64,000 bases of DNA from Euglena gracilis (GCA_039621445.1 CP154954.1:1798001-1862000), one strand, 5' to 3'. Positions 4,204-64,000 are shown, counted from the first letter of the stretch. Notes: generated by a model not told the origin, from the letters alone. Numbers and translations: made by a program.

Positions 4204-5160
<957 letters not shown>

Positions 5161-9092: not shown

Positions 9093-9102
9093 TTTCTGTT
9101 TT

Positions 9103-9176: not shown

Positions 9177-9271
9177 ATAAGGTTTTCTTTATTATTTATA
9201 ATAAATTTACAAAAATCGTTATAGATTTAATGAACGTATTTGTATGAAATTGAAAGGTAAATTTTATTTAG

Positions 9272-9403
<132 letters not shown>

Positions 9404-9431
9404 AAATTTGAAGTATTAAAACTAAAGAATA

Positions 9432-10162: not shown

Positions 10163-10347
10163 AAAGTTAAAACATCTTATAACATAAATAAATTTAATAT
10201 AAATTTAGTTAAAATTTATTAAATTTGTTCCCATTATTAAGGGAAAAATTTTGTTTTTTATTTACTGAATTTTTTAAAGTTTTTCATTTATTCGGGCAAA
10301 TACATAGATATTATTGGCATATTTTTACTATTATAACTAATATCGAG

Positions 10348-13021: not shown

Positions 13022-13125
13022 AGCTTGGGCCTGGGGCATATATAGACAATGCTAAACATATAAATACAAAATTAATAAGTCAAAATTTTCAACATAAACA
13101 ATACATATATGTATTTAGTTTTTTC

Positions 13126-35601: not shown

Positions 35602-35694
35602 TTATTTAGTAAATTGATCCATTTGTTCTAAAGCATTGAAACGATCAGAAATTAAAGGAGCTTGTTGTCTTGTTTCTGTAAAATATTCGCTTGG
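35602..35694 (-). pseudogene. psbE: 3' fragment of cytochrome b559 alpha, cut off at the junction with GC-rich repeats
   Basis: [30 protein letters not shown]; the upstream sequence is replaced by repeat DNA. Confidence 0.93.
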
Positions 35695-36274
35695 GGGCCC
35701 GAAATGGCCAAAACTGGCCAAACTGGCCCAAAACCCCAAAACGGCCGTATCTCGGGCTAGGCGGGGAGTTGGCCCAAACCGCGCATACCGATCGATCGGG
35801 CGTCCCAAAGTTGAGGAATGACGTCCTCTTCACTTTTTCGCAACTCCCCGGCGTTTTCGAGATATTTTGAATTTTTCGATTTTTTGACCCCAAAATGACC
35901 CTGAAATTTTCCTGGAAAAAAAAAACGGTAGACAAGTGTTTTGGTCGGGCCATATCTACGGACTGGCGGGGAGTTGCCAGAAACTGAAGTGCTCTGGAGA
36001 ACCTAGGGAACCTCTCCTAACCTATAGGCTATTCACTTTGGGAGCCCGGAAATCCAATCACATCGATAATCCTCGGGTGCCCCGAACTACCCAAGGGGGT
36101 GGGGGGGGGGCGGGGGGGGGGCGGGGGGGGGGGCGGGGGGGGGCGGGGGGGGCGGGGGGTCCGAACCCCCCGTCGCCGGGGTGGTAAGCTTCGCTCTTAC
36201 TCTAAAGAGATAAGAGCTCAGCGACCAGGGTGTGACGTAGAGCTGAGCTCTTTGGGGGACCATTCCGGCTCGGC

Positions 36275-36720
36275 CGGCGAAAAACGCTCATTTTCAGCTC
36301 AAAAACATGTTTTCCGGGTCCAGGAGGCTCAAAAACATGGTTTTGGGCTGAAAAAAAATTTCAATTTTTTTCGACTTTTTTGACCCGGTTTTGACCCAAA
36401 ATCAATGGGTTGGCGGCCCAAAAAGGGGCGCTGGCGGGTCGAAAAACGCTCATTTTCAGCTCAAAAACGCTTTTTCCGGGTCCGGGAGGCCAAAAAACAT
36501 GGTTTTGGGCGAAAAAATTTTTTCGATTTTTTTCGACTTTTTTGACCCAGTTTTGACCCAAAGTCAATGGGTTGGCGAACCAAAACGGGGCGCTGGCGGG
36601 TCGAAAAACGCTCATTTTCAGCTCAAAAACACTTTTTCCGGGTCCGGGAGGCCAAAAAACATGGTTTTGGGCGAAAAAAAATTTTTCGATTTTTTTCGAC
36701 TTTTTGGCCCGAAAACGGCT
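36275..36720 (+). repeat. ~160-bp tandem subrepeat with regularly spaced A/T tracts (3 copies; related copies at 57320-57900, 59220-59660 and 62500-62940)
   Basis: GAAAAACGCTCATTTTCAGCTCAAAAAC recurs at ~36279, 36441 and 36603. Confidence 0.85.
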
Positions 36721-37135
36721 AAGTCGGACAGTGGGAAAAGTGCGCAAAACGGCCATTTGGACCGAAAAACGGCCGTATCTCGGGCTAGGCGGGGAGTTGG
36801 CCCAAACTGCGAATACCGGTGGATAGGGCGTCCCAAAGTTGTGGAATGAGGTACTCTTTAGTTTTTCTCAACTCCCCGGCGTTTTCGAGATATTTTGAAT
36901 TTTTCGATATTTTGACCCCAAAAATGACCCCCTGTTGCCGGTCCAACAAACTTTCTTTGAAAAAAAAAACGGTAGACAACTTTTTTGCTCCGGCCATATC
37001 TCCGGACTGGAGGGGAGTTGCGGGCAAAATGAGGGCTCTGGAGAAACTAGGGATCCTCTCCTAACCTATAGGCTATTAACTTCTCGGGTCCCGAAATCAG
37101 GTCACATCGATAATCCTCGGGTGGCCGGACCTACT

Positions 37136-37166
<31 letters not shown>

Positions 37167-37299
37167 GGGGGGGCAGGGCTGGGGGGTGTACGGGGGGCTT
37201 TTTCGGGGGGTTGGTAAGCTTCGCTCTTACTCTAAAGAGATAAGAGCTCAGCGACCAGGTTGTGACGTAGAGCTGAGCTCTTTGGGAGACCACCCCAGT

Positions 37300-37450
37300 C
37301 CGGCCCGGCGCCCGGCCGGCGGCCTGGCCGGCCCGGCCGGCGGACCGGCGGCCCGGCCCGGCGGCCCGGCCCGGCGGCCCGGCGGCCCGGCGGCCCGGCG
37401 GCCCGGCGGCCCGGCGGCCCGGCGGCCCGGCGGCCCGGCGGCCCGGCCCG
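37300..37450 (+). repeat. (GGCCCGGC)n almost pure-GC microsatellite; also at ~39975-40065, 57168-57315, 60205-60345 and 63720-63895
   Basis: Direct reading of the sequence. Confidence 0.95.
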
Positions 37451-37454
37451 ACCC

Positions 37455-39060
37455 GGATGCTCATGATGCTCATGATGGCCATCCGGGGTCATGATGGCCA
37501 TCATTGGTCATGATGGCCATCCGGGGTCACGATGGCCATCATTGGTCATGATGGCCATCCGGGGTCATGATGGCCATCATTCGTCATGATGGCCATCATT
37601 GGGCATGATGGCCATCATGGGTCATGATGGCCATCCGGGGTCATGATGGCCATCATTGGTCATGATGGCCATCCGGGGTCATGATGGCCATCATTGGTCA
37701 TGATGGCCATCCGGGGTCATGATGGACATCCGGGGTCATGATGGCCATCCGGGGTCATGATGGCCATCATTGGTCATGATGGCCATCCGGGGTCATGATG
37801 GCCATCATTGGTCATGATGGCCATCATTTGGCATGCTGGGCATCATGGGTCATGATGGCCATCCGGGGTCATGATGGCCATCATTCGTCATGATGGCCAT
37901 CATTGGGCATGATGGCCATCATTGGTCATGATGGCCATCCGGGGTCATGATGGCCATCATTGGTCATGATGGCCATCCGGGGTCATGATGGACATCCGGG
38001 GTCATGATGGACATCCGGGGTCATGATGGCCATCCGGGGTCATGATGGCCATCATTGGTCATGATGGCCATCCGGGGTCATGATGGCCATCATTCGTCAT
38101 GATGGCCATCATTGGGCATGATGGCCATCATGGGTCATGATGGCCATCCGGGGTCATGATGGCCATCATTGGTCATGATGGCCATCCGGGGTCATGATGG
38201 CCATCATTGGTCATGATGGCCATCCGGGGTCATGATGGCCATCCTGGGTCATGATGGCCATCCGGGGTCATGATGGACATCCGGGGTCATGAATGATCAT
38301 TTGTCAATGAGTCCATTGGTCATGATGGCCATCCGGAGGGTCCATGAGTGGCCAATCATGGGGGGCCCCAAATCCGGGGTCAATGATGGCCATCCGGGGA
38401 GGTCATGATGAGCCATCATTGGTCTGAGGCCATCCGGGGTCATGATGGCCATCATTGGTCATGATGGCCATCCGGGGTCATGATGGCCATCATTGGTCAT
38501 GATGGCCATCCAGGGTCATGATGGCCATCCGGGGTCATGATGGCCATCATTGGTCATGATGGCCATCCGGGGTGATGGCCATCATGGGTCATGATGGCCA
38601 TCCGGGGTCATGATGGCCATCATTGGTCATGATGGCCACCGGGGGGCATGATGGCCATCATTGGTCATGATGGCCATCCGGGGTCATGATGGCCATCCGG
38701 GGTCATGATGGCCATCCGGGGTCATGATGGCCATCATTGGTCATGATGGCCATCCGGGGTCATGATGGCCATCATTCGTCATGATGGCCATCATTGGGCA
38801 TGATGGCCATCATGGGTTATGATGGCCATCCGGGGTCATGATGGCCATCATTGGTCATGATGGCCATCCGGGGTCATGATGGCCATCATTGGTCATGATG
38901 GCCATCCGGGGTCATGATGGCCATCATTGGTCATGATGGCCATCCGGGGTCATGATGGCCATCATTGGTCATGATGGCCATCATTGGTCATGATGGCCAT
39001 CCGGGGTCATGATGGCCATCATTGGGCATGATGGCCATCATTGGGCATGATGCGCATCAT
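37455..39060 (+). repeat. 19-bp minisatellite with two main variants, CATGATGGCCATCCGGGGT and CATGATGGCCATCATTGGT
   Basis: Direct reading; contains the palindrome ATGATGGCCATCAT; error-rich patch at ~38290-38430. Confidence 0.97.
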
Positions 39061-39822
39061 GACCATGAGGGCCATGAGGGGCTGGCGGGTCGAAAAACGC
39101 CAATTTTCGGCTCGAAAACACTTTTTCCGGGTCCAGGAAGCCTAAAAACATGGTTTTGGGCAAAAAAATTTTTTTTCGATTTTTTTCGAATTTTTGGCCC
39201 GAAAACGGCTAAGTCGGACAGAGGGAAAAGTGTACAAAACGGCCATTTGGACCTGAAAACGGCCGTATCTACGGCTAGGCGGAGAGTTGCGGGGAAATCA
39301 AAATACTAGTAGATAGGGCGTTCCAAGGGCTTCAATTTAGGTCTCCGGACATTTTTTTCAACTCCCCACCATTTTGGAAATATTTTGCAAAAACTGGTTT
39401 TTTGGCCCGTTTTGGGCTCCAAATGGCAGAGTCCCCCCGTGGCGAACCCTCTAAACGGCCGTATCTCGGCCCAGGCGGGGAGTTGGCTCAAACCGCGCAT
39501 ACCGGTGGAAAGGGCGTCCCAAAGTTGTGGAATGAGGTACTCTTTACTTTTTCTCAACTCCCCGGCGTTTTCGAGATATTTTGAATTTTTCGATTTTTTG
39601 ACCCCCAAAATGACCCCCTGTTGCCGGTCCAACAAAAGTTCTTTGAAAAAAAAACGGTAGACAACTTTTTTGCTCGGGCCATATCTCCGGCCTGGCGCGG
39701 AGTTGCGGGCAAAGTGAGGGCTCTGGACAAACTAGGGACCGTCTCCTAACCTATAGGCTATTAACCTTTCGGGTCCCGAAATCAGGTCACATCGATAATC
39801 CGCGGGTGCCCGGGCCTACTCA

Positions 39823-39860
<38 letters not shown>

Positions 39861-40062
39861 GTGGGGGGGTTTTTGCGGCGGTGGTAAGCTTCGCTCTTAC
39901 TATAAAGAGATAAGAGCTCAGCGACCAGGGTGTGGTGTGACGTAGAGCTGAGCTCTTTGGGAGACCACCCCAGCCCGGCCCGGCGGCCCGGCCCGGCTGG
40001 CGGCCCGGCGGCCCGGCCCGGCCGGCGGCCGGCGGCCCGGCGGCCCGGCCCGGCCGGCGGCC

Positions 40063-40560
40063 CGGGGTCATGATGGCCATCCGGAGTCATGATGGCCATC
40101 ATTGGTCATGATGGCCATCCGGGGTCATGATGGCCATCATTGGTCATGATGGTCATCCGGGGTCATGATGGCCATCGGGGTTCATGATGGCCATCCGGGG
40201 TCATGATGGCCATCCGGGGTCATGATGGCCATCCGGGGTCATGATGGCCATCATTGGTCATGATGGCCATCCGGGGTCATGATGGCCATCATTGGTCATG
40301 ATGGCCATCCGGGGTCATGATGGCCATCATTGGTCATGATGGCCATCCGGGGTCATGATGGCCATCCGGGGTCATGATGGCCATCCGGGGTCATGATGGC
40401 CATCCGGGGTCATGATGGCCATCATTGGTCATGATGGCCATCCGGGGTCATGATGGCCATCCGGGTTCATGATGGCCATCCTGGGTCCTCATGGCCATCA
40501 TTGGTCATGATGGCCATCATTGGTCATGATGGCCATCTTTGGTCATTGGCCATCATTGGG
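40063..40560 (+). repeat. 19-bp CATGATGGCC minisatellite, second block
   Basis: Same units as 37455-39060. Confidence 0.97.
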
Positions 40561-42330
40561 CAGGATGCGCCTCATGACCATGAGGGCCATGAGCGGCTGG
40601 GGGGTCGAAAAACGCCAATTTTCGGCTCGAAAACACTTTTTCCGGGTCCAGGAAGCAAAAAAACATGGTTTTGGGCACAAAAAATTTTTTCGATTTTTTT
40701 CGACTTTTTGCCCCGAAAACGGCTAAGTCGGATAGAGGGAAAAGTGTACAAAACGGCCATTTGGACCTGAAAACGGCCGTATCTAGGGCCGGGCGGGGAG
40801 TTGCGGGGAAATCAAAATACCAGTAGATAGGGCGTTCCAAGGGCTCCAAATTAGGTCTCCGGACATTTTTTTCAACTCCCCACCATTTTGGAGATATTTT
40901 GCAAAAACTGGTTTTTGGGCCCATTTTGGGCTCCAAATGGCAGAGTCCCCCCCTGGCGAAACCCCAAAACGGCCATATCTCGGCCCAGGCGGGGAGTTGG
41001 CCCAAACCGCGCATACCGGTGGATAGGGCGTCCCAAAGTTGTGGAATGAGGTACTCTTTACTTTTTCTCAACTCCCCGCCGTTTTCGAGATATTTTGAAT
41101 TTTTCGATTTTTTGACCCCAAAATGACCCATTTTTGGCAGAGTCCCCCCCCCTGGCGAAACCACAAAACGGCCATATCTCGGCCCAGGCGGGGAGTTGGC
41201 CCAAACCGCGCATACCGGTGGACAGGGCGTCCCAAAGTTGTGGAATGAGGTACTCTTTAGTTTTTCTCAACTCCCCGGCGTTTTCGAGATATTTTGAATT
41301 TTTCGATTTTTTGACCCCAAAAATGACCCCCTGTTGCCGGTCCAACAAACTTTCTTTGGAAAAAAACAGTAGACAACTTTTTTGCTCGGGCCAGATCTCC
41401 GGCCTGGCGCGGAGTTGCGGGCAACCTAAGGGCTCTGGACAAACTAGGGACCGTCTCCTAACCTATAGGCTATTAACCTTTCGGGTCCCGAAATCAGGTC
41501 ACATCGATAATCCGCGGGTGCCCGGGCCTACTCAGGGGGGGGGGGGGGGGGGGGGGCGGGGGCGGGGGGGGGGGGTCAGGGGGGGTTTGGGGGGGGTGGT
41601 AAGCTTCGCTCTTACTCTAAAGAGATAAGAGCTCAGCGACCAGGGTGTGACGTAGAGCTGAGCTCTTTGGTAGGCCACTGCGGCCCGACCCGGCCGGCTA
41701 GCGGCCCGGCGGCCCGGCGGCCCTGTAGCACAGGTGGTGATGGGGTTAAAATGATATGTTGAAGAATTCAGGGAGCCCTTGTGGAGAAATGAAGAGCATT
41801 GGAGTTATGTAGTATGGTGTTTGCACATGCAAGTACAATTAATTGTGTGTGTGACTTTTTGGTCTTAAAAAGGGGGAAAGAGGGAGTCATTATTATTCGG
41901 GACGCCTCCGAACAGTTGATGCGGCCCAGGCGTGGTTACCCCGATTTCGCACCGCTCCCATCGTCGTTGCCCCTGAAGTGGGGTGACAATGACGGGATGT
42001 CATCGGCTTGGGTATCCCCGGCTATGGGTACCGGGGACCCGCACGGTTGCGGGCGGTTACCTACCTTGCTATCTTGCCGTGGGCAAGCGGTTAGAATTTG
42101 AGGTTTCGCCCTGGGTTGCTGGTGAGGGTTTAGTCGGTGTTTGGTTGTTAGGGTTAGTTAGTGTTAGGTGTGTTGGTGTTAGTTTGCCAGTTAGGAGAGT
42201 GGTCATGGGAGAGGGGATTGGGGAGAGGAGTTTTTTCGAAAGGGGATGTGGCTTTTCCCGTCAGCATGGGGACCGACGTTTGCCATTGGAAAAAGTGGAT
42301 GGTTAATGATGATTAGAGTTAGAGGTACTT

Positions 42331-42358
42331 ACACTTCCGGAGTGTCTATTTGTTTTCG
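42331..42358 (+). other. Degenerate Euglena spliced-leader exon sequence (relic SL)
   Basis: ACTTCCGGAGTGTCTATTTGTTTTCG (42333-42358) against the recalled E. gracilis SL ACTTTCTGAGTGTCTATTTTTTTTCG: 23/26 identical. Confidence 0.7.
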
Positions 42359-42689
42359 TCTGTGCGCAATGCATTGCAGAAGGAAGCATTTTCATTGACA
42401 AGATTCTCATTCAGAGCATTCTCATTGACACATGAACACAGGAAGCTGATTTGTCTTTTGGCTCTTAGGATGCAGCCTAAATTATCGCCTTGGCGAAGTA
42501 ACTTCGGATGGACGCTGGAATGTCATCGTTGTGCGGCATGTGTGCTTGGAGGCAGAAATTCTGAGATGTGTTGTATTTTACTTACTAATATGTGTGTTGC
42601 TGCTTGTGTGTCTCGCCCATTATCAACGTGTACTGCAATGTGGTTCCTTTGTGCAGCTCATGTACTGGCTCGTTGCATGCTTGCACTCG

Positions 42690-45600
42690 CGAAGTGCACA
42701 TTTGCATTTTCACGGTGCACATCGTGCACTCGCCTGGTGCACATCGTGCACTCGTGTGTAGGAAATGAAACGATGGCCACATAGGTGCACATGTTGGGGT
42801 AATGAAACGGTGGCCTCATAGTGGGAAATAAAAGAACCATTTGCATTTTCATGGTGCACATTTGCATTTTCACGGTGCACATCGTGCACTCGCTTGGTGC
42901 ACATCGTGCACTCATGGGTAGGCATTCATGGTGCACATCGTGCACTCGCCTGGTGCACATCGTGCACTCATGGGCAGGCACTGGAAATCTGGCCATGGTG
43001 CAGCTCCTTCACTCCTGGTGCACATCGTGCACTCATGGGTAGGCATTGGACATCTGGCCACGGGCATGACATTTTCTTTCTCCTGGTGCAGCTCCTGCAC
43101 TCGCCTGGTACACATCGTGCACTCATGTTGGGGTAATGAAACGGTGGCCTCGTAGTTGGAAAATATAAGAACCATTTGCATTTTCATGGTGCACATCGTG
43201 CACTCGCTTGGTGCACATCGTGCACTCATGGGTAGGCATTGGAAATCTGGCCACGGGCATGACATTTTCTTTCTCCTTGTGCAGCTCCTGCACTCGCCTG
43301 GTGCACATCGTGCACTCATGTTGGGGTAATGAAACGGTGGCCTCATAGTGGGAAATAAAAGAACCATTTGCATTTTCATGGTGCACATCGTGCACTCGCC
43401 TGGTGCACATCGTGCACTCATGGGTAGGCACTGGAAATCTGGCCATGGTGCAGCTCCTTCGCTCCTGGTGCACATCGTGCACTCATGGGTGGGCATTGGA
43501 CTTCTGGCCACGGGCATGACATTTCCTTTCTCTTGGTGCAGCTCCTGCACTCGCCTGGTGCACATCGTGCACTCACGTGTGGGAAACAAAATGATGGCCT
43601 CACAGTGGGAAATAAAAGAAGCAGTTGCATTTTCATGGTGCACATCGTGCACTCGCTTGGTGCACATCGTGCACTCATGGGTAGGCACTGGAAATCTGGC
43701 CATGGTGCAGCTCCTTCACTCCTGGTGCACATCGTGCACTCATGGGTAGACATTGGACATCTGGCCACGGGCATGCCATTTCCTTTCTCCTGGTGCAGCT
43801 CCTGCACTCGCCTGGTGCACATCGTGCACTCATGGGTAGGCACTGGAAATCTGGCCATGGTGCTGCTCCTTCGCTCTTGGTGCACATCGTGCACTCATGG
43901 GTGGGCATTGGACATCTGGCCACGGGCATGACATTTCCTTTCTCCTGGTGCAGCTCCTGCACTCGCCTGGTGCACATCGTGCACTCATGGGTTGGCACTG
44001 GAAATCTGGCCATGGTGCAGCTCCTTCGCTCCTGGTGCACATCGTGCACTCATGGGTAGGCATTGGAAATCTGGCCACGGGCATGACATTTCCTTTCTCC
44101 TGGTGCAGCTCCTGCACTCGCCTGGTGCACATCGTGCACTCATGTTGGGGTAATGAAACGGTGGCCTCATAGTGGGAAATAAAAGAAACATTTGCATTTT
44201 CATGGTGCACATCGTGCACTCGCCTGGTGCACATCGTGCACTCATGGGTAGGCACTGGAAATCTGGCCATGGTGCAGCTCCTTCGCTCCTGGTGCACATC
44301 GTGCACTCATGGGTGGGCATTGGACATCTGGCCACGGGCATGACATTTCCTTTCTCTTTGTGCAGCTCCTGCACTCGCCTGGTGCACATCGTGCACTCAC
44401 GTGTGGGAAACAAAATGATGGCCTCACAGTGGGAAATAAAAGAAGCAGTTGCATTTTCATGGTGCACATCGTGCACTCGCTTGGTGCACATCGTGCACTC
44501 ATGGGTAGGCACTGGAAATCTGGCCATGGTGCAGCTCCTTCACTCCTGGTGCACATCGTGCACTCATGGGTAGGCATTGGACATCTGGCCACGGGCATGA
44601 CATTTCCTTTCTCCTGGTGCAGCTCCTGCACTCGCCTGGTGCACATCGTGCACTCATGGGTAGGCACTGGAAATCTGGCCATGGTGCAGCTCCTTCGCTC
44701 TTGGTGCACATCGTGCAGTCATGGGTGGGCATTGGACATCTGGCCACGGGCATGACATTTCCTTTCTCCTGGTGCAGCTCCTGCACTCGCCTGGTGCACA
44801 TCGTGCACTCATGGGTAGGCACTGGAAATCTGGCCATGGTGCAGCTCCTTCGCTCCTGGTGCACATCGTGCACTCATGGGTAGGCACTGGAAATCTGGCC
44901 ATGGTGCAGCTCCTTGGCTCCTGGTGCACATCGTGCACTCATGGGTGGGCATTGGACATCTGGCCACGGGCATGACATTTCCTTTCTCCTGGTGCAGCTC
45001 CTGCACTCGCCTGGTGCACATCGTGCACTCATGTTGGGGTAATGAAACGGTGGCCTCATATTGGAAATAAAAGAACCATTTGCATTTTCATGGTGCACAT
45101 CGTGCACTCGCTTGGTGCACATCGTGCACTCATGGGTAGGCATTGGAAATCTGGCCACGGGCATGACATTTCCTTTCTCCTGGTGCAGCTCCTGCACTCG
45201 CCTGGTGCACATCGTGCACTCATGTTGGGGTAATGAAACGGTGGCCTCATAGTGGGAAATAAAAGAAACGTTTGCATATTCATGGTGCACATCGTGCACT
45301 CGCCTGGTGCACATCGTGCACTCATGGGTAGGCACTGGAAATCTGGCCATGGTGCAGCTCCTTCGCTCCTGGTGCACATCGTGCACTCATGGGTGGGCAT
45401 TGGACATCTGGCCACGGGCATGACATTTCCTTTCTCTTGGTGCAGCTCCTGCACTCGCCTGGTGCACATCGTGCACTCACGTGTGGGAAACAAATGATGG
45501 CCTCACAGTGGGAAATAAAAGAAGCAGTTGCATTTTCATGGTGCACATCGTGCACTCGCCTGGTGCACATCGTGCACTCATGGGTAGGCACTGGAAATCT

Positions 45601-46380
45601 GGTCATGGTGCAGCTCCTTCGCTCCTGGTGCACATCGTGCACTCATGGGTGGGCATTGGACATCTGGCCACGGGGGAGACATTTCCTTTCTCCTGGTGCA
45701 GCTGCTTCACTCGCTTGGTGCACATCGTGCACTCACGCGTGGGAAACAAAATGATGGCCTCACAGTGGGAAATTCAAGAACCATTTGCATTTTCATGGTG
45801 CACATCGTGCACTCGGTTGGTGCACATCGTGCACTCATGGGTAGGCACTGGAAATCAGGCCAGGGGCATGACGTTTCCTTTCTCCTGGTGCAGCTGGTGC
45901 ACTCGCCTGGTGCACATCGTGCACTCATGGGTAGGCACTGGAAATCTGGCCATGGTGCAGCTCCTTCGCTCCTGGTGCACATCGTGCACTCATGGGTGGG
46001 CATTGGACATCTGGCCACGGGCATGACATTTCCTTTCTCATGGTGCAGCTCCTGCACTCGCCTGGTGCACATCGTGCACTCATGTTGGGGTAATGAAACG
46101 GTGGCCTCACAGTGGGAAATTGAAGAACCATTTGTATTTTCATGGTGCACATCGTGCACTCGCCTGGTGCACATCGTGCACTCATGGGTAGGCACTGGAA
46201 ATCTGGCCATGGTGCAGCTCCTTCGCTCCTGGTGCACATCGTGCACTCATGGGTGGGCATTGGACATCTGGCCACGGGCATGACATTTCCTTTCTCTGGT
46301 GCAGCTCCTGCACTCGCCTGGTGCACATCGTGCACTCACGTGTGGGAAACAAAATGATGGTCTCAACAGTGCACTCAGTG
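42690..46380 (+). repeat. Modular tandem array of the palindromic core GGTGCACATCGTGCACTC joined by about five recurring linker types; ~824 bp higher-order repeat
   Basis: Dozens of cores. Near-identical spurious ORFs start at 43348 and 44172, and at 43742 and 44566 (offset 824). The array decays towards ~46680. Confidence 0.95.
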
Positions 46381-46776
46381 GGACAATGGCCAGGGGGGGG
46401 GGGCAACGCAGAATGCCATCTCCATAATCCTGGGACAACTGATGATCTGTTCGGTGTACGAAGTGCACTCCTGGTCCGGGTGATGGCCACATGGAGGGGG
46501 AACAACCCAGAATGACATGTCCATTATCCTGGGGCAAAGGGTGCACAATGGTGCACTCTTGGTGCACAACGGTGCACTCAGTGGGACGATGGTCACATGT
46601 GGGGACAACGCAGAATGCCGTGTCCATATTCCTGGGACAACCGCTTATCTGTGCGGTGCACGATGTGCACTCCTAATGCGGGTGATGGCCATGGATAAAA
46701 ACGGTGCAACCCCTACGCTCCTTTGACGAGATCTTTCTGTGGCACATCTTCACTCTGAAAAACCAGATGACTTGTG

Positions 46777-53800: not shown

Positions 53801-55004
53801 GTGCACCATGTTCTGCGCCTCGCATACCTCCCACGGCACCTTCGGCGGCATGCACGACACCCCCCACCCCACTGCACCCCCCCTCCACGCCACGTGCGGC
53901 ACCTTGTGCACCATGTTCTGCGCCTCGCATTCCACCGGCGGCACCTTCAATGGCATTTACCATACCCTGCACCCCACTGCACCCCCCCTCCACGCCACGT
54001 GCGGCACTTTGTGCACCATGTTCTGCACCTTGCAGTCCTCCCACGGCACCTTCAACAGCATGCACCATACCCTGAACCCCATAGGTGCCTGTGTCCATGC
54101 TCTCCTCATAGAACAAGCGCCTTCGGGACAAACTCCGAGTTGGTGCCTTGGCACAACCTAGAACGTGGCGCCGCATGTGTTGCACTCTTGAAAATTCTTC
54201 CTTGCAATAAGCGCACACGCGTGACGGGGTTCTTGGGACAGCAGAGTTACACCTTTCAAAATGGCGGTTAAAATTATTTCGATCACCAAATTGATCATTG
54301 CACTTGCTGCATGTGAATAATTTAGGACTGTGAACATTGGACGTGTCCGTGGAATGGTGGTCACGCATATGCCTTAGCAAATGCTGATTTGATGAAAATG
54401 TTTTTTCACATTGTGGACATTGTGGTCTATCACTCTCAATAGCTTGCACAACACATTCCCCACGAGGCGTGTCTTGGGCCAGCATAGTATCACCATCCCT
54501 TTCGGTGCTACCCGCGTGCACATTTCGAATATGCCGTAACAAATTTGGGCGTGTTGAAAACGTTTTCTTGCAGTACTTGCATTCCTGCCCTCTACAAATG
54601 CTTTCTTGCATTAAATTAGAACCACCAAGGCCAAATGCAATGCCTTCTTGCGATGAACTGTCACATTTTTGCACACGACTGTTAACACTATGAACACGTG
54701 TTTCATTGGTTGCATCCCAAGAGCCAAAAGAACTTTCATTTCGCATGGCCCGTTCCATTTCAATGTCTCCCCAACATTCAAAAGCATCAGGCAGAGGTCT
54801 GTCTTTTGCCAACATTGAGGGGTTGGAACAAGGCGCATTTTGCACACGTTGTTGAAACACTTTCATCAATGCAAACAAAAAACACCCCAAAGCAATGAAA
54901 AGAACGATAACATGCCGCAAAGTTGGCGATGAAACAAACTTTTCTTCCTCGGGATTCATTGAATGCATGAAAGAAACCAAAAAAAAGTTTGGAAAAACCT
55001 GCAC
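47672..55004 (-). CDS. Helitron-family Rep/Helicase: C2H2 zinc fingers, 35-aa repeats, Helitron N-terminal region, HUH Rep and Pif1 helicase; split by about four frameshifts (~51710, ~49600, ~49275, ~49050)
   Basis: HDHRFAESRDFVLLIFNQ; FGMPSVFFTFAP; NPVAAARIF; EAQSRGSLHGHGVFW; QIHRC...CRFGMP; YVVGYCTK; LTEEQ; AGPGTGKS; APSGVAA; LLIDEMSM; FGGMCVVLMGDFVQIPPV; GLSNGT; FYVGISRVR. Confidence 0.93.
53700..54080 (-). repeat. In-frame 105-bp (35-aa) coding tandem repeat, about 3.5 copies
   Basis: GAEHGAQSAARGVEGGCSGVQGMVNAIEGAAGGMR-like units; CCTCCACGCCACGTGC at ~53777, 53882 and 53987. Confidence 0.9.
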
Positions 55005-55056
55005 AGAGAAGAGAAGAGAGCAATAAGGGATTCAATGTCTTTTCGCGCCTTTATGA

Positions 55057-55445
55057 AATACACAAGCCTATATCCTCAATTCAAAATGCATCAGCCTAAA
55101 TCCCCAAAAGGAAAGCCAGCCCCTAATTGGAAATCGACCGTCTCCTAATTGATTGACATAACCCCCGTATTAGACAGTCCCCTCCCCCTAATTGCAACAC
55201 CACCGTTAACGCACAGTACCCCCTCCTAATTTGACAAACCTTTCACCAAATACACAAGCCTGTATCCTCAATTCAAAATGCATCAGCCTAAATCCCCCAA
55301 CGGAAAGCCACCCCTAATTGGAATTCCACTGTCTCCTAATTGATTGACATAACCCCCGTATTTGACATTCCCCCCCCCCTAATTGCAACACCACGCTCAA
55401 TGCACAGTGGCCCCTCGTAATTTGGCAACCTCCCCCCCCAATTGA
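55057..55445 (+). repeat. ~190-bp direct repeat (2 copies) just upstream of the Rep/Hel ORF
   Basis: AAATACACAAGCCT.TATCCTCAATTCAAAATGCATCAGCCTAAATCCCC at ~55057 and ~55248. Confidence 0.9.
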
Positions 55446-58109
55446 GAAGTGGAGACCAGAAGAGTGGTGATGAAACATGGTTTTAGGCCGAACAAAAACC
55501 CAAAAAAAATTTGATTTGTACTTTCTGACCGAAAAATGACTCGAAACTTTTCGGTTTCCGGCCCAGAACGAGGGGCTAGCAAATCAAAAAAAAAAACACT
55601 CATCGGCCCATAAACACTTTTGCCGGGGGAGGGAGGACCAAAAAACATGCATTTGTGAAAAAACATTTATTTTCGGCTCCAAAACAGTGTTTCCGGGAGG
55701 GCAAAAAAAACACGAATTCGGGCCAAAAAAAATCTCCAATTTTTTCGATTTTTTGACCCAGTTTTGAGCCGAAGTAAATGCGTTGGCGGCCTGAAACGGG
55801 ATCTTTGACCCTGGAACTTTGACCCTTGAAAAAGACAGAATTGACCATACAATGCCGTGAATACCGTGCAGCCCATGAAATATCATGCTTTGGTCTAAGT
55901 GCAATGGGTCACAAATGACAACACCCTACATTGACAAATGTTTCTTTTCCTCCTGGTGCGGGGCTAAATCAAGGGTTGGCATGCCTAACGGGGTCTCTTG
56001 AAGAACAGGGTGTGGTTGAGGTGCGCTTTGCCAAATACTGTATGACCTTCAAGAGGATTGTAAAAAATCTGGGTGTAAACCACCGTTCTCCTTCGCTTTG
56101 TATCAAAATTCAGCTGTGTTCCATCATATTATGTCCTAAAACGCCACCACAATGACGTTATTCCTGATGAAAACCTTTTGAAAAATATGCTTAAAGTAAC
56201 TGAGAATCAAATTGTTTGTTGCTATTGCCAAAAAGGTAATTCATATCACCCCTCCAACCACATGCATGAACGGGCCACATGGGTCACATTCGTGACAATT
56301 TGCGCGAAATTTGCGAAAAGTATTTGCTTATACAACCGCACCTCACATACCACTTTTTCCTTGCAGTCGGGTACGTTTGGGGGATCACCCCCCACGTTGT
56401 TATCCTTGGAAATTCTGTTGGGAGCTTTGTCAAGAAACAGTGACGATGATGGCGACGGTGATGATGAAAACGATGAAAGGAAAAGAAAATATTTCACATA
56501 CATCCAAAGAAGCATGTTCAAAACATCGTGGTGTGAGATTTATACGCAATCCATGCCGAATTTGATCCTGCATGCAACATGAGTGCTGATGGTGGTGGTA
56601 TCATTTGGCAGTGTGCTCGTCGATCATATCACACTCGCGGCAGTGAATACGGCCCAAAATCAGCAAACAACGCCCGTGTTTGCGATGAAGCGGGGGGGGG
56701 GGAGGGGTCGCCATGGGGTGCGGGACGAATTCAAAACAGATAGGTGTTCGTAGTAGGGGTTTTCTTAAGCCGTAGCGTACTCAATCGTGGTGGGGGTCTA
56801 GTCATGCAACAGCTCAAAGCAAACCACCAACTGAAAGTGGGGCTGGGAGCCCACGGCCCCCCTCCGGGGGGATCGAGTGACATACACTTGGGTCATGTCT
56901 AGCTGGCAAATTGGGCTGCGCAGTTCACGTATCCCTTCATTTTTCCCCTCATTACAGCTTCCTCCTTCACAGCCCCCCCAGCATTGACCCAGCTCCATGC
57001 ATCACAGTGTCGAAAATTAAAAAAAATGTTGGACAATGCTCGTTTTCATCAGTTTTTGTGGGTCCGGGAGGCCAAAAAACATCGTTTTGGGCAAAAAAAT
57101 TTTTTCGAATTTTTTCAACTTTTTTGACCGGTTCTGACCCTGAGCTCTTTGGGAGACCACCCCAGTCCGGCCCGGCGGCCCGGCCCGGTCCGGCCGGCGG
57201 CCCGGCGGCCCCGGCCGGCGGCCCGGCGGCCCGGCGGCCCGGCCCGGCCGGCGGCGCGGCGGCCCGGCGGCCCGGCCCGGCCGGCGGCGCGGCGGCCCGG
57301 CGGCCCGGCGGCCCATTTTGGGCTCAAAAACAGTTGTTCTGGGTCCGGGACGCAAAAAAAACATCGTTTTGGGGCAGAAAAAAGTTTTCGATTGTTCTCG
57401 ACTTTTTTGACCCGGTTTTGACTCAAAATCAATGGGTTGGCGGCCCAAAACGGCGCGCCGGCGGGTCGAAAAACGTTCATTTTTGGCTCGAAAACACTTT
57501 TTTTGGGTCCGGGAGGTCAAAAATCATGGTTTTGGGCAAAAAAATTTTTTCGATTTTTTCGAATTTTTCGAACAGATTTTGATCCAAAGTATATGGCTCG
57601 GCTGCACAAAATGGGGAGTTGGAGGGTCGAAAAACGCTCGTTTTAGGCAAAAAAACAGTTTTTCCGGGTCCGGGAGGCCAAACAACATCGTTTCGGGCAA
57701 AAAAAATTTTTCGATTTTTTTCGACTTTTTTGACCCGGTTTTGACCCAAAGTCAATGGGTCGGCGGCCCAAAACGGGGCGCCGGCGGGTCGAAAAACGTT
57801 CATTTTTGGCTCGAAAACACTTTTTTTGGGTCCGGGAGGTCAAAAATCATGGTTTTGGGCAAAAAAAAAATTTCCGATTTTTTTTGACTTTTTGACCCCA
57901 AAATGGCTAAGTCCACCGGCCAGGGGGGGGGGCATCCTGGGGGGGGGAGGGGGGGGGGTCCGGGTCGGAAAAATTTTTTTTCGCTCTAAAAACCTTTTTT
58001 TGATGTTCTGAAATGAAAAAAAGTGTTTTTTTTTTAAATAATTTTTTCAAAATTTTGGGTCCCGACCTGCCACCCGACCCCCCCTCGCCCAGCCGCCCTG
58101 AAGGCGCGC

Positions 58110-58870
58110 GATGGGGCCCCCGAACACCCAAAAACTGGCCAAAATCGCACAACCAGACCCCGGGAACCCCAAAAAACGGTCAAAAACCCCCCCTAAACCT
58201 AATGATTGACCCCCTGGTTTGGGTTCCAACTCCTCGTCTAGCCCGAGATACGGCCAATTTACGGTTTCGGGCCCTGAACGGGCCAGAACTGGCAAAACTG
58301 GCCCAAAACCCCCAAAACGGCCATATCTCGGGCTAGGCGGGGAGTTGTCCCAAACCGCGCATACCGATGGATAGGGCGTTCCAAGGTCGTCAAATAAGGT
58401 CGCCGTCACTTTTCCTCAACTCCGCAGCGTTTTCGAGATATTTTGAATTTTTCGATTTTTTGACCCCAGCCCGGCAGCCCTCGAACCCCTGCAGGGGTCC
58501 CCGAATACCCAAAAATGGCCCAAAATCGTACAACCAGACCCCGGGAACCCCAAAAAACGGTCAAAACCCCCCCCTAAACCTAATGATTGACCCCCTGGTT
58601 TGGGTTCCAACTCCCCGTCTAGCCCGAGATACGGTCAATTTACGGTTTCGGGCCCCGAACGGGCCCGAAATGGCCAAAACTGGCCCAACTGGCCCAAAAC
58701 CCCAAAACGGCCGTATCTCGGGCTAGGCGGGGAGTTGGCCCAAACCGCGCATACCGATCGATCGGGCGTCCCAAAGTTGTGGAACGAGGTCCTCTTCAAT
58801 TTTTCGCAACTCCCCGGCGTTTTCGAGATATTTTGAAATTATCGATTTTTTGACCCCAAAATGACCCTGC
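58110..58870 (+). repeat. ~380-bp direct repeat (2 copies)
   Basis: CAACCAGACCCCGGGAACCCCAAAAAACGGTCAAAA...CTAAACCTAATGATTGACCCCCTGG at ~58150 and ~58531. Confidence 0.88.
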
Positions 58871-59155
58871 AATTTCCCCGGAAAAAAAAACGGTACAACT
58901 TTTTAGCTCGGGCCATATCTCCGGACTGGCGGAGAGTTGCGGGTAACCGAAGGGCTCCGGAGGTACTAGGGAACCTCTCCTAACCTATAGGCTATTCACT
59001 TTGGGGGCCACAAAATCCAGTCACATCGATAATCCCGGGGTTTCACTACCTACCCAGGGGGGGCGGGGGGGGGGGGGGGGGGGCGGCGGGGGGGGGCGGG
59101 GGGGTCCGACCCCCCCGTCGCCGGGGTGGTAAGCTTCGCTCTTACTCTAAAGAGA

Positions 59156-62100
59156 TAAGAGCTCAGCGACCAGGGTGTGACGTAGAGCTGAGCTCTTTGG
59201 GGGACCATTCCGGCCCGGCCGGCGAAAAACGCTCATTTTCAGCTCAAAAACATGTTTTCCGGGTCCTGGAGGCCAAAAAACATGGTTTTGGGCGAAAAAA
59301 AATTTCGATATTTTTCGACTTTTTTGACCCGGTTTTGACCCAAAATCATTGGGTTGGCGGCCCAAAAAGGGGCCCTGGCGGTTCGAAAAACGCTCATTTT
59401 CAGCTCAAAAACACTTTTTCCGGGTCCGGGAGGCCAAAAAACATGGTTTTGGGCGAAAAAAAAATTTTCGATTTTTTTCGACTTTTTTGACCCGGGTTTG
59501 ACCCAAAGTCAATGGGTTGGCGAACCAAAACGGGGCGCTGGCGGGTCGAAAAACGCTCATTTTCTGCCCAAAAACACTTTTTCCGGGTCCGGGAGGCCAA
59601 AAAACAGGGTTTTGGGCGAAAAAATTTTTTTCGATTTTTTTCGACTTTTTGGCCCGAAAACGGCTAAGTCGGACAGTGGGAAAAGTGTACAAAACGGCCA
59701 TTTGGGCCGAAAAATGGCCATATCTCGGGCTAGGCGGGGAGTTGGCCCAAACTGCGAATACCGGTGGATAGGGCGTCCCAAAGTTGTGGAATGAGGTACT
59801 CTTTAGTTTTTCTCAACTCCCCAGCGTTTTCGAGATATTTTGAATTTTTCGATTTTTTGACCCCAAAAATGACCCCTTTTGCCGGTCCAACAAAATTTCT
59901 TTGGAAAAAAACGGTACGCAACTTTTTTGCTCGGGCCAGATCTCCGGCCTGGCGCGGAGTTGCGGGCAAAGTGAGGGCTCTGGACAAACTAGGGATCCTC
60001 TCCTAACCTATAGGCTATTCACTTTGGGGGCCCGGAAATCGGGTCACATCGATAATCCTCGGGTGTCTTTGCCTACTCAGGGGGGGGGGGGCGGGGGCGG
60101 GGGGGGGTCAGGGGGGGGTTTCGGGGGGGTGGTAAGCTTCGGGCTTCGTCTAAAGAGGTAAGAGCTCAGCGACCAAATTGTGACGTAGAGCTGAGCTTTT
60201 TGGGACCGGCGGCGGCGGCCTGGCCCGGCCGGCGGACCGGCGGCGGCCGGCGGCCCGGCCCGGCCGGCGGCCCGGCGGCCCGGCGGCCCGGCGGCCCGGC
60301 GGCCCGGCGGCCCGGCGGCCCGGCGGCCCGGCGGCCCGGCCCGACCCGGATGCTCATGATGCTCATGATGGCCATCCGGGGTCATGATGGCCATCATTGG
60401 TCATGATGGCCATCCGGGGTCATGATGGCCATCATTGGTCATGATGGCCATCCGGGGTCATGATGGCCATCATTCGTCATGATGGCCATCATTGGGCATG
60501 ATGGCCATCATGGGTCATGATGGCCATCCGGGGTCATGATGGCCATCATTGGTCATGATGGCCATCCGGGGTCATGATGGCCATCATTGGTCATGATGGC
60601 CATCCGGGGTCATGATGGACATCCGGGGTCATGATGGCCATCCGGGGTCATGATGGCCATCATTGGTCATGATGGCCATCCGGGGTCATGATGGCCATCA
60701 TTGGTCATGATGGCCATCCTTGGGCATGATGGCCATCATTGGTCATGATGGCCATCCGGGGTCATGATGGCCATCATTCGTCATGATGGCCATCATTGGG
60801 CATGATGGCCATCATTGGTCATGATGGCCATCCGGGGTCATGATGGCCATCATTGGTCATGATGGCCATCCGGGGTCATGATGGACATCCGGGGTCATGA
60901 TGGACATCCGGGGTCATGATGGCCATCCGGGGTCATGATGGCCATCATTGGTCATGATGGCCATCCGGGGTCATGATGGCCATCATTGGTCATGATGGCC
61001 ATCCGGGGTCATGATGGCCATCATTGGTCATGATGGCCATCCGGGGTCATGATGGCCATCCGGGGTCATGATGGCCATCATTGGTCATGATGGCCATCAT
61101 TGGGCATGATGGCCATCCGGGGTCATGATGGCCATCATTGGTCATGATGGCCATCCGGGGTCATGATGGCCATCATTGGTCATGAATGGCCATCCGGGGT
61201 CATGATGGCCATCATTGGTCATGATGGCCATCCGGGGTCATGATGGCCATCCGGGGTCATGATGGCCATCATTGGTCATGATGGCCATCCGGGGTCATGA
61301 TGGCCATCATTCGTCATGATGGCCATCATTGGGCATGATGGCCATCATGGGTCATGATGGCCATCCGGGGTCATGATGGCCATCATTGGTCATGATGGCC
61401 ATCCGGGGTCATGATGGCCATCATTGGTCATGATGGCCATCCGGGGTCATGATGGCCATCATTGGTCATGATGGCCATCCGGGGTCATGATGGCCATCAT
61501 TGGTCATGATGGCCATCATTGGTCATGATGGCCATCCGGGGTCATGATGGCCATCATTGGGCATGATGGCCATCATTGGGCATGATGCGCATCATGACCA
61601 TGAGGGCCATGAGGGGCTGGCGGGTCGAAAAACGCCAATTTTCGGCTCGAAAACACTTTTTCCGGGTCCAGGAAGCCTAAAAACGTGGTTTTGGGCAAAA
61701 AAAATTTTTTTGATTTTTTTCGAATTTTTGGCCCGAAAACGGCTAAGTCGGACAGAGGGAAAAGTGTACAAAACGGCCATTTGGACCTGAAAACGGCCGT
61801 ATCTACGGCTAGGCGGAGAGTTGCGGGGAAATCAAAATACTAGTAGATAGGGCGTTCCAAGGGCTTCAATTTAGGTCTCCGGACATTTTTTTCAACTCCC
61901 CACCATTTTGGAAATATTTTGCAAAAACTGGTTTTTTGGCCCGTTTTGGGCTCCAAATGGCAGAGTCCCCCCGTGGCGAACCCTCAAAACGGCCGTATCT
62001 CGGCCCAGGCGGGGAGTTGGCCCAAAACCGCGCATACCGGTGGAAAGGGCGTCCCAAAGTTGTGGAATGAGGTACTCTTTACTTTTTCTCAACTCCCCGG

Positions 62101-63572
62101 CGTTTTCGAGATTTTGAATTTTTCGATTTTTTGGCCCCAAAAATGACCCCCTGTTGCCGGTCCAACAAAAGTTCTTTGAAAAAAAAACGGTAGACAACTT
62201 TTTTGCTCGGGCCATATCTCCGGCCTGGCGCGGAGTTGCGGGCAAAGTGAGGGCTCTGGACAAACTAGGGACCGTCTCCTAACCTATAGGCTATTAACCT
62301 TTCGGGTCCCGAAATCAGGTCACATCGATAATCCGCGGGTGCCCGGGCCTACTCAGGGGGGGGGGGGGGGGGGGGCGGGGGGGGGGGAGGGGGGGTTTGG
62401 GGGGGGGGGGAAGCTTCGCTCTTACTCTAAAGAGATAAGAGCTCATCGACCAGGGTGTGACGTAGAGCTGAGCTCTTTGTGGGAGCACTCCGGCCTGCAC
62501 GGCGAAAAACGCTCATTTTCGGCTCAAAAACATGTTTTCCGGGTCCAGGAGGCCCAAAAAACATCGTTTCGGGCGAAAAAAATTTTTCGATATTTTTCGA
62601 CTTTTTTGACCCGGTTTTGACCCAAAATCAATGGGTTGGCGGCCCAAAACGGGGCGCTGGCGGGTCGAAAAACGCTCATTTTCAGCTCAAAAACGCTTTT
62701 TCCGGGTCCGGGAGGCCAAAAAACATGGTTTTGGGCAAAAAAATTTTTTTCGATTTTTTTCGACTTTTTTGACCCGGTTTTGACCCAAAGTCAATGGGTT
62801 GGCGAACCAAAACGGGGCGCTGGCGGGTCGAAAAACGCTCATTTTCAGCTCAAAACCACTTTTTCCGGGTCCGGGAGGCCAAAAAAACCTGGTTTTGGGC
62901 GAAAAAAATTTTCGATTTTTTCGCCTTTTTTGGCCGAAAACGGGTCAGTCGGACAGTGGGAAAAATGCACAAAACGGCCATTTGGACCGAAAAACGGCCG
63001 TATCTCGGGCCAGGCGGGGAGTTGGCCCAAACTGCGCATACCGGTGGATAGGGCGTCCCAAAGTTGTGGAATGAGGTACTCTTTAGTTTTTCTCAACTCC
63101 CCGGCGTTTTCGAGATATTTTGAATTTTTCGATTTTTTGACCCCAAAATGACCCCTTTTGGCAGAGCCCCCCCCCCTGGCAAAACCACAAAACGGCCGTA
63201 TCTCGGGCTAGGCGGGGAGTTGGCCCAAACCGCGCATACCGGTGGAAAGGGCGTCCCAAAGTTGTGGAATGAGGTACTCTTTGGTTTTTCTCAACTCCCC
63301 GGCGTTTTCGAGATATTTTGAATTTTTCGATTTTTTGACCCCAAAATGACCCCCTGTTGCCGGTCCAACAAAATTTCTTTGGAAAAAAAACGGTACGCAA
63401 CTTTTTTGCTCGGGCCAGATCTCCGGCCTGGCGCGGAGTTGCGGGCAAAGTGAGGGCTCTGGACAAACTAGGGACCGTCTCCTAACCTATAGGCTATTAA
63501 CCTTTCGGGTCCCGAAATCCAATCACATCGATAATCCTCGGGGGCCCGAGCCTACTCAGGGGGGGGGGGGGG

Positions 63573-63609
<37 letters not shown>

Positions 63610-64000
63610 GGGGGGGGTTTCGGGGGGGGTGGTAAGCTTCGCTCTTACTCTAAAGAGATAAGAGCTCAGCGACCAGGGTGTGACGTAGAGCTGAGCTCTT
63701 TGGGAGACCACCCCAGTCCGGCCCGGCCCGGCCGGCGTGGGGCCCGCGGCGGCCCGGCGGAAAGGGCGGGCGGCGGCGGCCCGGCCGGGGCCGGCGGCCC
63801 GGCGGCCGGCGGCCGGCGGGCCCGGCGGCCCGGCGGCCCGCCCGGCCCGGCCGGCGGCCCGGCCCGGCCCAGCCGGCGGCCCGGCGGCCCGCGACCGGAT
63901 CAATGATCATGATGGCCATCCGGGGTCATGATGGCCATCATTGGTCATGATGGCCATCCGGGGTCATGATGGCCATCAATTGGTCATGATGGCCATCGGC
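59156..64000 (+). mobile_element. Second head-to-tail array of the same putative non-autonomous units; unit starts at 59156, 60159, 62436 and 63659
   Basis: Same terminal module and internal blocks as 35695-41625. Confidence 0.6.
60345..61595 (+). repeat. 19-bp CATGATGGCC minisatellite, third block (a fourth starts at ~63903)
   Basis: Same units and same opening variant order as 37455-39060. Confidence 0.97.

Follow-up and report, generated by a model that had tools for sequence, protein, structure and literature searches.

A RepHel gene of the Helitron2/Helentron group within a head-to-tail repeat array of Euglena gracilis

The DNA described here is a window of 64,000 nucleotides from Euglena gracilis (GCA_039621445.1 CP154954.1:1798001-1862000), and its right-hand part, from 35696 to 64000, is a GC-rich nuclear-type repeat region (45-57% GC) that follows plastid DNA of 22% GC (1-35695; range 11-27%). 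The repeat region contains eight copies of a short junction module that separates units arranged head to tail, and a single unit carries a gene for a RepHel protein with Rep and Pif1-type helicase domains. A preliminary description had proposed a colony of rolling-circle transposons, in which an autonomous 17.5 kb element is embedded among short units with identical termini.

The RepHel gene and its other copies

The RepHel coding region extends from 55031 to 46777 on the minus strand, opposite to the strand on which it was first read, and Rep and Pif1 sequences are found nowhere else in the window, in agreement with the earlier statement that they are confined to the large unit. Piece 1 (51681-55031) encodes C2H2 zinc fingers, DUF6570 and the start of a Helitron_like_N domain, and piece 2 (49453-51792) encodes the Rep core, in which the translation shows HGHGVFW and NYVVGYCTK, followed by an acidic linker; we take HGHGVFW to be the HUH motif and YVVGY to contain the two catalytic tyrosines. 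A frame-broken stretch (49142-49452) holds the N-terminus of the helicase with the Walker A motif GPGTGKST, piece 3 (47672-49141) the Pif1-type helicase, and piece 4 (46777-48000) a C-terminal OTU cysteine-protease domain, all on the minus strand. The domain matches lie on this one strand and comprise DUF6570 (PF20209; E 7.2e-17, residues 649-785 of piece 1), Helitron_like_N (E 8.9e-14), PIF1 (PF05970; E 5.8e-14), OTU (E 5e-5) and the C2H2 fingers. A 105-bp coding repeat present 3.4 times (53729-54081, minus strand) encodes Gly/Ala-rich peptides between the zinc fingers and DUF6570.

DUF6570 is almost exclusive to the HLE2 elements and serves as a marker of that group against HLE1 in the available part of the HELIANO report (PMC11417382), and on this marker RepHel is placed in the Helitron2/Helentron group (HLE2). 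The Helentron/Helitron2 identity first suggested therefore holds at the level of the group; it does not extend to a Helentron in the strict sense, as no endonuclease was found. Specifically, neither an endonuclease nor an RPA family was detected in 42 of the 60 open reading frames (ORFs) of at least 100 amino acids (aa) in 41670-57140, these being the RepHel pieces and 35 more.

The Rep piece has 618 relatives at E<=1e-3 among 1.84 billion representative proteins and only 16 at E<=1e-30, and the best full-length relatives are 26-32% identical. Twelve long relatives were scanned for domains: nine contain DUF6570, the remaining three start inside the Rep domain, and none of the 12 has an endonuclease or an OTU domain at E<=1e-5. 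A word-indexed protein search returned two relatives of near length and two longer ones (25-49% identity), and none of 465 pattern matches to the Rep piece in metagenome contigs was confirmed. The helicase matched 19 sequences in the PDB, the best of which are Pif1 helicases, with a weak match to Helraiser (E 2.7e-4); the Rep piece matched no PDB sequence.

The coding region in the window is interrupted by at least five frame breaks, near 51713, at about 49460-49600, and near 49272, 49050 and 47779. Public reads from the same organism provide a view of other copies. Twenty runs contain 28-50% of the sampled words of 46500-56400, and four of them were aligned to 46400-59300 at >=90% likeness, a threshold at which the noncoding flanks of a family whose coding part is mostly 90-95% alike would drop out; the summed contig depths are not copy numbers and are used only as ratios. 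Four of the frame breaks coincide with indels in these other copies, namely an additional A at 51713 (depth 1327/3761 in run X1 and 26.6/41 in run X7), an additional A at 49272 (1921/2595), a loss of two bases at 49050 (3021/5431) and a loss of one base at 47779/47780, which brings the OTU piece into the helicase frame. By our frame arithmetic each of these indels restores the frame of the next piece, and the family thus includes copies with one ORF of about 2750 aa. The frameshifted states of the window also occur in the reads and so are not mere assembly errors. The window copy itself is dead and not autonomous, being frameshifted and lying in a unit that lacks its 5' end, and the autonomy ascribed to it in the preliminary description has to be given up.

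Transcription of the family was looked at in two RNA runs. Run X21 contains essentially no RepHel reads (0-0.54 in two bins). In run X24 the interval 46831-49416 is covered 1.6- to 5.6-fold with the first mate on the plus strand, as against 0-0.95 with the first mate on the minus strand, a signal that would represent sense transcription provided that the library was made by the ordinary stranded method. Most of the X24 reads are derived from other copies, since 804 of 1026 aligned reads are only 90-95% alike.

Units of the array and their junctions

The eight modules are marked by TAAGAGC on the plus strand at 36211, 37241, 39911, 41626, 59156, 60159, 62436 and 63659, which gives distances of 1030, 2670, 1715, 17530, 1003, 2277 and 1223 bp in order; both the sites and the lengths reproduce those first reported. 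Over both strands of the whole window there are 20 matches to TAAGAGC, against 4.0 expected by shuffling and a maximum of eight in 100 shuffles, and its perfect inverted partner GCTCTTA lies 18 nt upstream at seven of the eight sites, the copy at 60159 being degenerate there. The complete arms, AAGAGCTCAGC and GCTGAGCTCTT, are 11 nt long, perfectly complementary and 19 nt apart in the junction that was tested. The arm motif has 17 matches in the window, consisting of eight pairs and one solo arm, where 0.17 would be expected.

By self-BLAST the module spans 75-87 nt, and on the plus strand it reads as a G-rich tract, GGTAAGCTTC, a hairpin, TCAGCGACC, about 15 nt, and then GCTGAGCTCTTTGG; the G-rich tract precedes all eight modules (64-91% G over 70 nt). 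In the orientation of RepHel (minus strand) the copies are at 36181-36262, 37212-37292, 39881-39967 (in which the spacer has a 5-nt duplication), 41596-41670, 59126-59207, 60129-60204 (a degenerate copy with a mutated left hairpin arm and TTGG for CTGG), 62408-62484 (with one uncompensated change in an arm) and 63629-63710. The copies at 59126-59207 and 41596-41670 are identical to the first at 82/82 and 75/75 positions, respectively. No part of the unit is better conserved than the module, which has a mean pairwise identity of 91-93%, compared with 75-78% in the tail and 45% in the head. The module pattern CTGAGCTCTTTGGGRGACCA has no matches in metagenome, viral and genome contig collections.

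When the minus strand is folded as single-stranded DNA, the lowest-energy structure has two separate hairpins, one for each arm (z -2.5 to -3.0). The hairpin of the 3' arm has 5 bp (AGAGC-TCA-GCTCT), and that of the 5' arm is extended, with 7+3 bp (GCTCTTA/TAAGAGC and TCT/AGA) plus outer pairs; in the centroid fold the two 11-nt arms pair with each other instead and enclose a loop of 19 nt. On the strand of RepHel the junction consists of a hairpinned 3' arm, 10 nt, CTGG, TC, a 5' arm nested in a hairpin, and a C tract, and CTGG|TC is found 10 nt past the 3' hairpin in seven of the eight junctions. In the first module, for example, the arms are at 36212-36222 and 36242-36252 and the proposed joint is at 36225|36224. 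This arrangement suggests that each junction module represents the 3' end of one unit joined directly to the 5' end of the next at a putative joint, and at 41596-41670 the 3' end of the RepHel-bearing unit would be joined to the 5' end of the unit referred to below as C. The boundary proposed earlier, AGAGA|TAAGAGC, falls in the middle of the 5' hairpin, and the two visible breakpoints are displaced from it to the right, one by 15-16 nt and the other by 30 nt.

The short units between modules consist wholly of common parts, namely a 162-bp repeat, a 19-bp satellite, a GGCCCGGC run and a tail of about 450 nt, and the observation that no foreign spacer separates the modules is upheld. Their order on the plus strand is module and head, then, where present, a GGCCCGGC run and a 19-bp palindromic satellite, followed by 162-bp repeats (from 1 to 3.6 copies per unit), tail (of which the first 170 nt are doubled in some units), G tract, and the next module. 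On the minus strand a unit therefore starts with 5'-TC, the arm GCTGAGCTCTT in its 7+3-bp hairpin, a C-rich tract, the conserved region of about 450 nt and the 162-bp repeats, and ends with a variable cargo slot, a GGCCGGGC-type run (GGCCCGGC on the plus strand), the inverted arm AAGAGCTCAGC in its 5-bp hairpin, 10 nt and CTGG-3'. Units differ in length at a single place only, the slot that separates the GGCCCGGC run from the 162-bp repeats; this slot is empty, or holds the 19-bp satellite, or in one unit holds 15 kb with RepHel. Noncoding units of this kind, head to tail with a common hairpin-rich junction and internal tandem repeats, conform to the comparison with HINE and DINE-1 elements that had been drawn.

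The 17.5 kb interval is not a single unit, as had been supposed, since a half module at 57139 splits off a unit of 2.0 kb. It is made up of the RepHel-bearing unit (41626-57140) and a further unit, D (57141-59156). At one end the RepHel-bearing unit is normal, with module, head and GGCCCGGC run, and shares the 3' module and head (41596-41724) with the short units, whereas at the other it has only a fragment of the 162-bp repeat; its 5' end is missing and is fused to a solo arm, CCTGAGCTCTT (57139-57149, minus strand), which is the right arm only and forms the 3' arm of unit D in a ninth, partial module. This arm abuts the partial 162-bp repeat and has no hairpin, spacer or G tract. We infer that a single deletion took the 5' part of the RepHel unit together with the last ~17 nt of its neighbour, which would explain the fusion at 57139.

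The flanks of the RepHel segment are related to one another. The first, 35696-41698, leads from the tail of a cut unit through units A, B and C to the junction that follows, and the second, 58662-63732, from the tail of unit D through units A2, B2 and C2 to the junction that follows; the two are colinear and 83-93% identical, with tail identities of 89% (pre-A/Big), 93% (A/A2), 99% (B/B2) and 94% (C/C2). The first self-comparisons were dominated by the 19-bp satellite, and only the long colinear match is informative. A block of 5-6 kb is thus duplicated on both sides of the RepHel segment, pointing to local growth by tandem or segmental duplication and not to seven transposition events; the seven units cannot be counted as independent in the way the preliminary description did. 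A strict 23-kb higher-order repeat with one RepHel per period was considered and ruled out, as the unit after 63659 is of the B type and bears the satellite (78-79% identity to the heads of B and B2, 47% to that of the RepHel unit).

In the reads there is a steep hierarchy of abundance. The summed depth in run X1 is 4,700-12,900 over the coding interval 46400-55019 and 370-2,500 over 55020-56743, and rises to 0.8-5.5 million from 56744 on, where the 162-bp repeat, tail and module lie; overall the short-unit repeat exceeds RepHel about 100-1000-fold. Of the loose ends close to a junction, the one with the best support follows 59171, in the fifth module, where other copies often break; it is seen in three of four runs (209 records in X1, 33 in X7 and 19 in X24). 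This breakpoint is 4 nt outside the arm, and as the flank after it starts with C, a break at CTGG|TC is also compatible. Together with the solo arm at 57139 it gives two breakpoints, both located at outer arm edges, in the 19-nt spacer or at its border. Many reads have, after ...TCAGCGACC at 59171/59172, a C-rich stretch resembling the reverse complement of the G tract. No listed read-contig record spans a whole unit. Two further joints, 55480>57668 and 55693>57070, were set aside, each being present in one contig only with sides of 24-30 nt.

Several other repeats lie in the array. The 162-bp repeat array of unit D is at 57314-57898, with others at 36278-36705, 59212-59650 and 62503-62932, and diverged relics are at 55659-55791 and 57054-57140; one relic, 78% identical, lies beside the start of RepHel. 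The 19-bp satellite, TCATGATGGCCATCATGGG, is nearly palindromic and its arrays match their own reverse at about 70%; it occupies 37470-39061 in unit B, 40062-40537 in unit C and 60363-61596 in unit B2. A tandem array of the palindromic 15-mer GTGCACATCGTGCAC, with nested periods of 65-448 bp over 3.5-4 kb (42700-46670), lies directly downstream of the RepHel stop, and its gene-proximal edge is read to the same depth as the coding region. The RepHel start is immediately preceded by a 191-bp repeat present 1.9 times (55056-55428), which is of low abundance in the reads. A 34-nt piece of the tail, 58704-58737, is found in DNA and RNA reads in many other contexts, has loose ends at either side in each of the four runs and inverted copies near 58216-58255 and 58597-58634, and may be a separate small repeat. 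The RNA reads of X21 at 56940-56978 cover only 39 nt and are unlike the sequence on either side, and this is probably a short motif common to transcripts from elsewhere.

Relationship to described elements and alternative explanations

The closest described elements are the fungal Helitron2-type elements and the proto-Helentron of Phytophthora infestans, and the comparisons that follow hold for the available parts of the publications cited. The terminal inverted repeats of Helitron2 elements are asymmetric, some members form a hairpin at either end, the 5' end has TC, and the orientation of the ORF can flip; in FoHeli1 and FoHeli2 the 3' repeat is set back from the end by 38-51 bp and lies inside a hairpin (PMC5148889). 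The Euglena array shares with these a RepHel protein with DUF6570 in which no endonuclease was found, and tandem copies, and its proposed ends would likewise have asymmetric terminal inverted repeats of ~11-12 nt, a hairpinned 5' end starting with TC and a subterminal, hairpinned 3' repeat (PMC5148889, PMC11417382). It differs in that the 3' arm is 15-19 nt from the proposed end as against 38-51 nt in FoHeli1 and FoHeli2, in that the proposed 3' end is CTGG and not the ATTTT of Helitron2, and in its C/G homopolymer-like tract about 45 nt inside the 5' end, its C-terminal OTU domain and its euglenid host.

The Phytophthora proto-Helentron combines a Helentron-like Rep/helicase lacking an endonuclease with Helitron-like ends (PMC4067079), and is similar to the present family in having an HLE2-type protein in which no endonuclease was found and a 3' CTAG, where CTGG is proposed here; OTU and other extra domains also occur in its group (PMC4067079, PMC11417382). 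Its 5' end is TT, and its A/T target is confirmed with empty sites, whereas the 5' TC of the Euglena family is proposed only, and satellite-like arrays of derivatives, as seen here, are not described for it in the available part of that report (PMC4067079).

In DINE-1 elements the 5' subterminal repeat contains a nested inverted repeat, and the centre is occupied by repeats (PMC4067079). The short units resemble DINE-1 and HINE elements in lacking genes, in their putative subterminal inverted repeats, with an inverted repeat nested in the 5' arm, in their central micro- or minisatellites of variable length (here the 162-bp repeat, the 19-bp satellite and the GGCCCGGC run) and in their very high copy number, and the emergence of satellites is paralleled by the Helentron-borne satellite arrays of oysters (PMC7492417). 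DINE-1 and HINE elements are, however, dispersed, have a TT target and have partners that encode an endonuclease, whereas here only tandem copies are seen and no endonuclease was found. There are likenesses to the HLE1 Helitrons as well, in the proposed 5'-TC and 3'-CTRR, the hairpin 10 nt upstream of CTRR, and the head-to-tail arrays that are known for them; tandem insertions or arrays of Helitrons are described in bat, maize, rice and plant centromeres (PMC5148889). In contrast to HLE1, the family has the HLE2 marker DUF6570, a helicase with a weak match to Helraiser, and inverted terminal arms.

We lean with modest confidence to the view that the GC-rich array represents an HLE2 family with head-to-tail, HINE-like, noncoding derivatives that carry satellites, in which the module is a 3' end joined to a 5' end and which has spread mainly as satellite. 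What is observed is the anatomy of the array, the HLE2-type protein and its catalytic motifs, the duplication of the block and the differences in abundance; to these the view adds, by inference, the exact joint and every step of movement. It is favoured by the class of the protein, the arms and hairpins in the orientation of the gene, the conservation of the module, the single variable slot that also holds RepHel, the 162-bp-repeat relic at the start of the gene and the two breakpoints at the arm edges, and the structure of the module suggests that it could provide the termini of the RepHel family itself. Under this view an intact RepHel from another copy, with a two-tyrosine HUH nuclease and a Pif1 helicase, would nick the ends of an element, peel off one strand and reinsert it, and units without the gene would be mobilised in trans. 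Head-to-tail chains could begin by read-through of a 3' end, by insertion beside an existing end or by integration of a concatemer, and growth of the array would then be satellite-like, through unequal exchange and segmental duplication.

Several findings weigh against it. Only tandem, head-to-tail copies and one RepHel locus are seen, and the proposed ends are placed from structure; the RepHel-bearing unit has a module on its 3' side only, its 5' side being a non-canonical fusion; and local growth of the array was driven by block duplication. The interval upstream of RepHel (55020-56743) is 10-30 times rarer than the coding part, a comparison that leaves out reads less than 90% alike, and for the same reason read depth provides no link between RepHel and the module. 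CTGG|TC was spotted post hoc, with a chance of occurrence in the 19-nt spacer that we estimate at ~1-2%, and the differences between module copies are uncompensated and give no covariation to back the hairpins. The 3' arm lies 15-19 nt from the proposed end, compared to 20-60 nt in described families, and the breakpoint at 59171 may be an inverted, palindromic variant of the junction (G tract, hairpin, C tract) and not a transposon end. Finally, no inverted pair of at least 11 nt was found at plausible ends bounding the 15-kb RepHel segment (41670-46800 against 54950-57140), and the lack of inverted repeats of its own is consistent with the favoured view and no proof of it.

The most serious alternative, which we regard as possible and on the whole unlikely, is that the array is an ordinary complex euglenid satellite unrelated to Helitrons, that a Helitron-type element or a fragment of one is carried in one of its units, and that the likeness of the module to transposon ends is coincidental. 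Palindromes are frequent in satellites, and other palindromic repeats are indeed present here (the 19-bp satellite and a GTGCAC array). The great excess of short units over RepHel in X1, the block duplication as the mode of local growth, the presence of RepHel in one unit only, with no canonical 5' junction, and the rarity of its upstream flank relative to its coding part are what such a satellite would show. Against this, the RepHel segment is bounded by neither separate terminal inverted repeats nor hairpin ends, and it occupies exactly the slot that varies among units, with a diverged 162-bp-repeat relic adjoining the start of the gene. The module, moreover, unites 11-nt inverted arms, a hairpin on each arm and a CTGG|TC whose distance from a hairpin is canonical, and it does so in the orientation of RepHel.

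A bolder form of the transposon reading, which we think improbable, is that the module would be a working recognition and nick site for RepHel, and that the most abundant tandem repeat would have been made by rolling-circle copying, either as concatemers or as unit circles released between modules and reintegrated. If this were true, the satellite would owe both its formation and its upkeep to a transposase, extrachromosomal circles might exist, and the variants in the reads with a G tract, hairpin and C tract would be by-products of hairpin-primed synthesis.

We give little credence to the idea that the arrangement is in part an assembly artefact, in which mis-joined long reads of very abundant molecules have produced an unreal order and number of units and an unreal link between RepHel and the array. 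The contig does fuse 35.7 kb of plastid DNA to the repeat and cuts psbE in doing so, the G tracts with scattered C look error-prone, and the repeat is extremely abundant. The copies of the block, however, differ at 1-17% and are not one sequence assembled twice, contigs from other runs are exact on low-copy parts (four listed X1 pieces in 55137-56668 with 0 other letters), and the frameshifts of the window recur in the runs, as at 51713, where a depth of about 2434 of 3761 lacks the extra A.

Least credible of all is that the junction is an origin-like stem-loop (11-bp stem, 19-nt loop) whose loop is nicked, in the manner of rolling-circle plasmids and CRESS-type replicons, that units between two modules are set free and copied as circles, and that the array is a store of replicons. 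In its favour, the centroid fold pairs the arms around the loop, the frequent 59171 breakpoint falls within the loop, the module is conserved above all other parts of the unit, and joined-end amplicons suggest circular intermediates of a fungal Helitron2-type element (PMC5148889, available part). Against it, the break at the solo arm (57139) is placed, within the module, 16 nt from that at 59171, leaving no single nick site, and the lowest-energy fold favours two separate hairpins.

Genomic context and significance

The plastid part of the window contains rbcL and atpB, in separated pieces, together with rpl2, rpl22, rps3, rpl5 and rps8, and the only Rfam matches at the gathering threshold are five plastid tRNAs, with none anywhere in the GC-rich part of the window. 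The rbcL and atpB sequences are fragmented into separate ORFs at 548-2844, 10348-13039 and 26632-27549, implying introns, and one plastid ORF has a weak match to GIIM, the group II intron maturase domain (E 7e-4), that is below the cutoff. Both the gene content and the split genes are what we would expect of a euglenid plastid. At the join with the repeat at 35695 (35690-35700) psbE is truncated, and its lumenal part is reduced to profile positions 11-39 of 39; the remnant (35605-35694, minus strand) consists of the final 30 codons only. On the other side the join falls at an arbitrary point within a repeat unit, and it may reflect either the chimeric assembly of two DNAs that are both very abundant or the recent insertion of a large piece of plastid DNA.

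Within the RepHel unit, a 28-mer at 42331-42358 (plus strand) matches the euglenoid spliced leader at 25 of 28 bases, as given in the available part of PMC3621762. It is antisense to RepHel and is followed by sequence that is not intron-like, which suggests a retro-copied fragment of a trans-spliced transcript. Its presence supports a euglenid nuclear origin, and with the adjoining intron-split plastid genes it bears out the euglenid context proposed at the outset. Nearby, 42454-42477 is a 24-nt inverted match (92%) to 54708-54731 in the N-terminal coding region of RepHel; a partial inverted copy of the gene was ruled out here, as the match does not extend.

Euglenid nuclear genomes are very rich in repeats, most of them unclassified. 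Repeats make up 58.84% of the Euglena gracilis genome, unclassified repeats account for 32.7% of the genome, and the available part of that report makes no mention of Helitrons (PMC11252322). One trypanosomatid is the only euglenozoan sampled in the supplement of the HELIANO survey, as far as it was available (PMC11417382), and for Diplonema the available text mentions Helitron-like ORFs and no more. We found no description of euglenid Helitrons in the literature searched, and the array looks like an arrangement already known from other organisms that now turns up in the euglenids.

The module offers a concrete search target to annotators of repeats, and the junction is a tractable substrate for studies of end recognition by HLE2 elements. 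If the favoured view is correct, part of the unclassified repeat fraction of Euglena gracilis would be of the Helitron2 type, and its gene-less derivatives would be among the most abundant repeats of the organism, much as DINE-1 is a counterpart in Drosophila and the satellites borne by Helentrons are in oysters. HLE2, with ends that mix features of Helitron and Helitron2, would then extend to the Euglenida.

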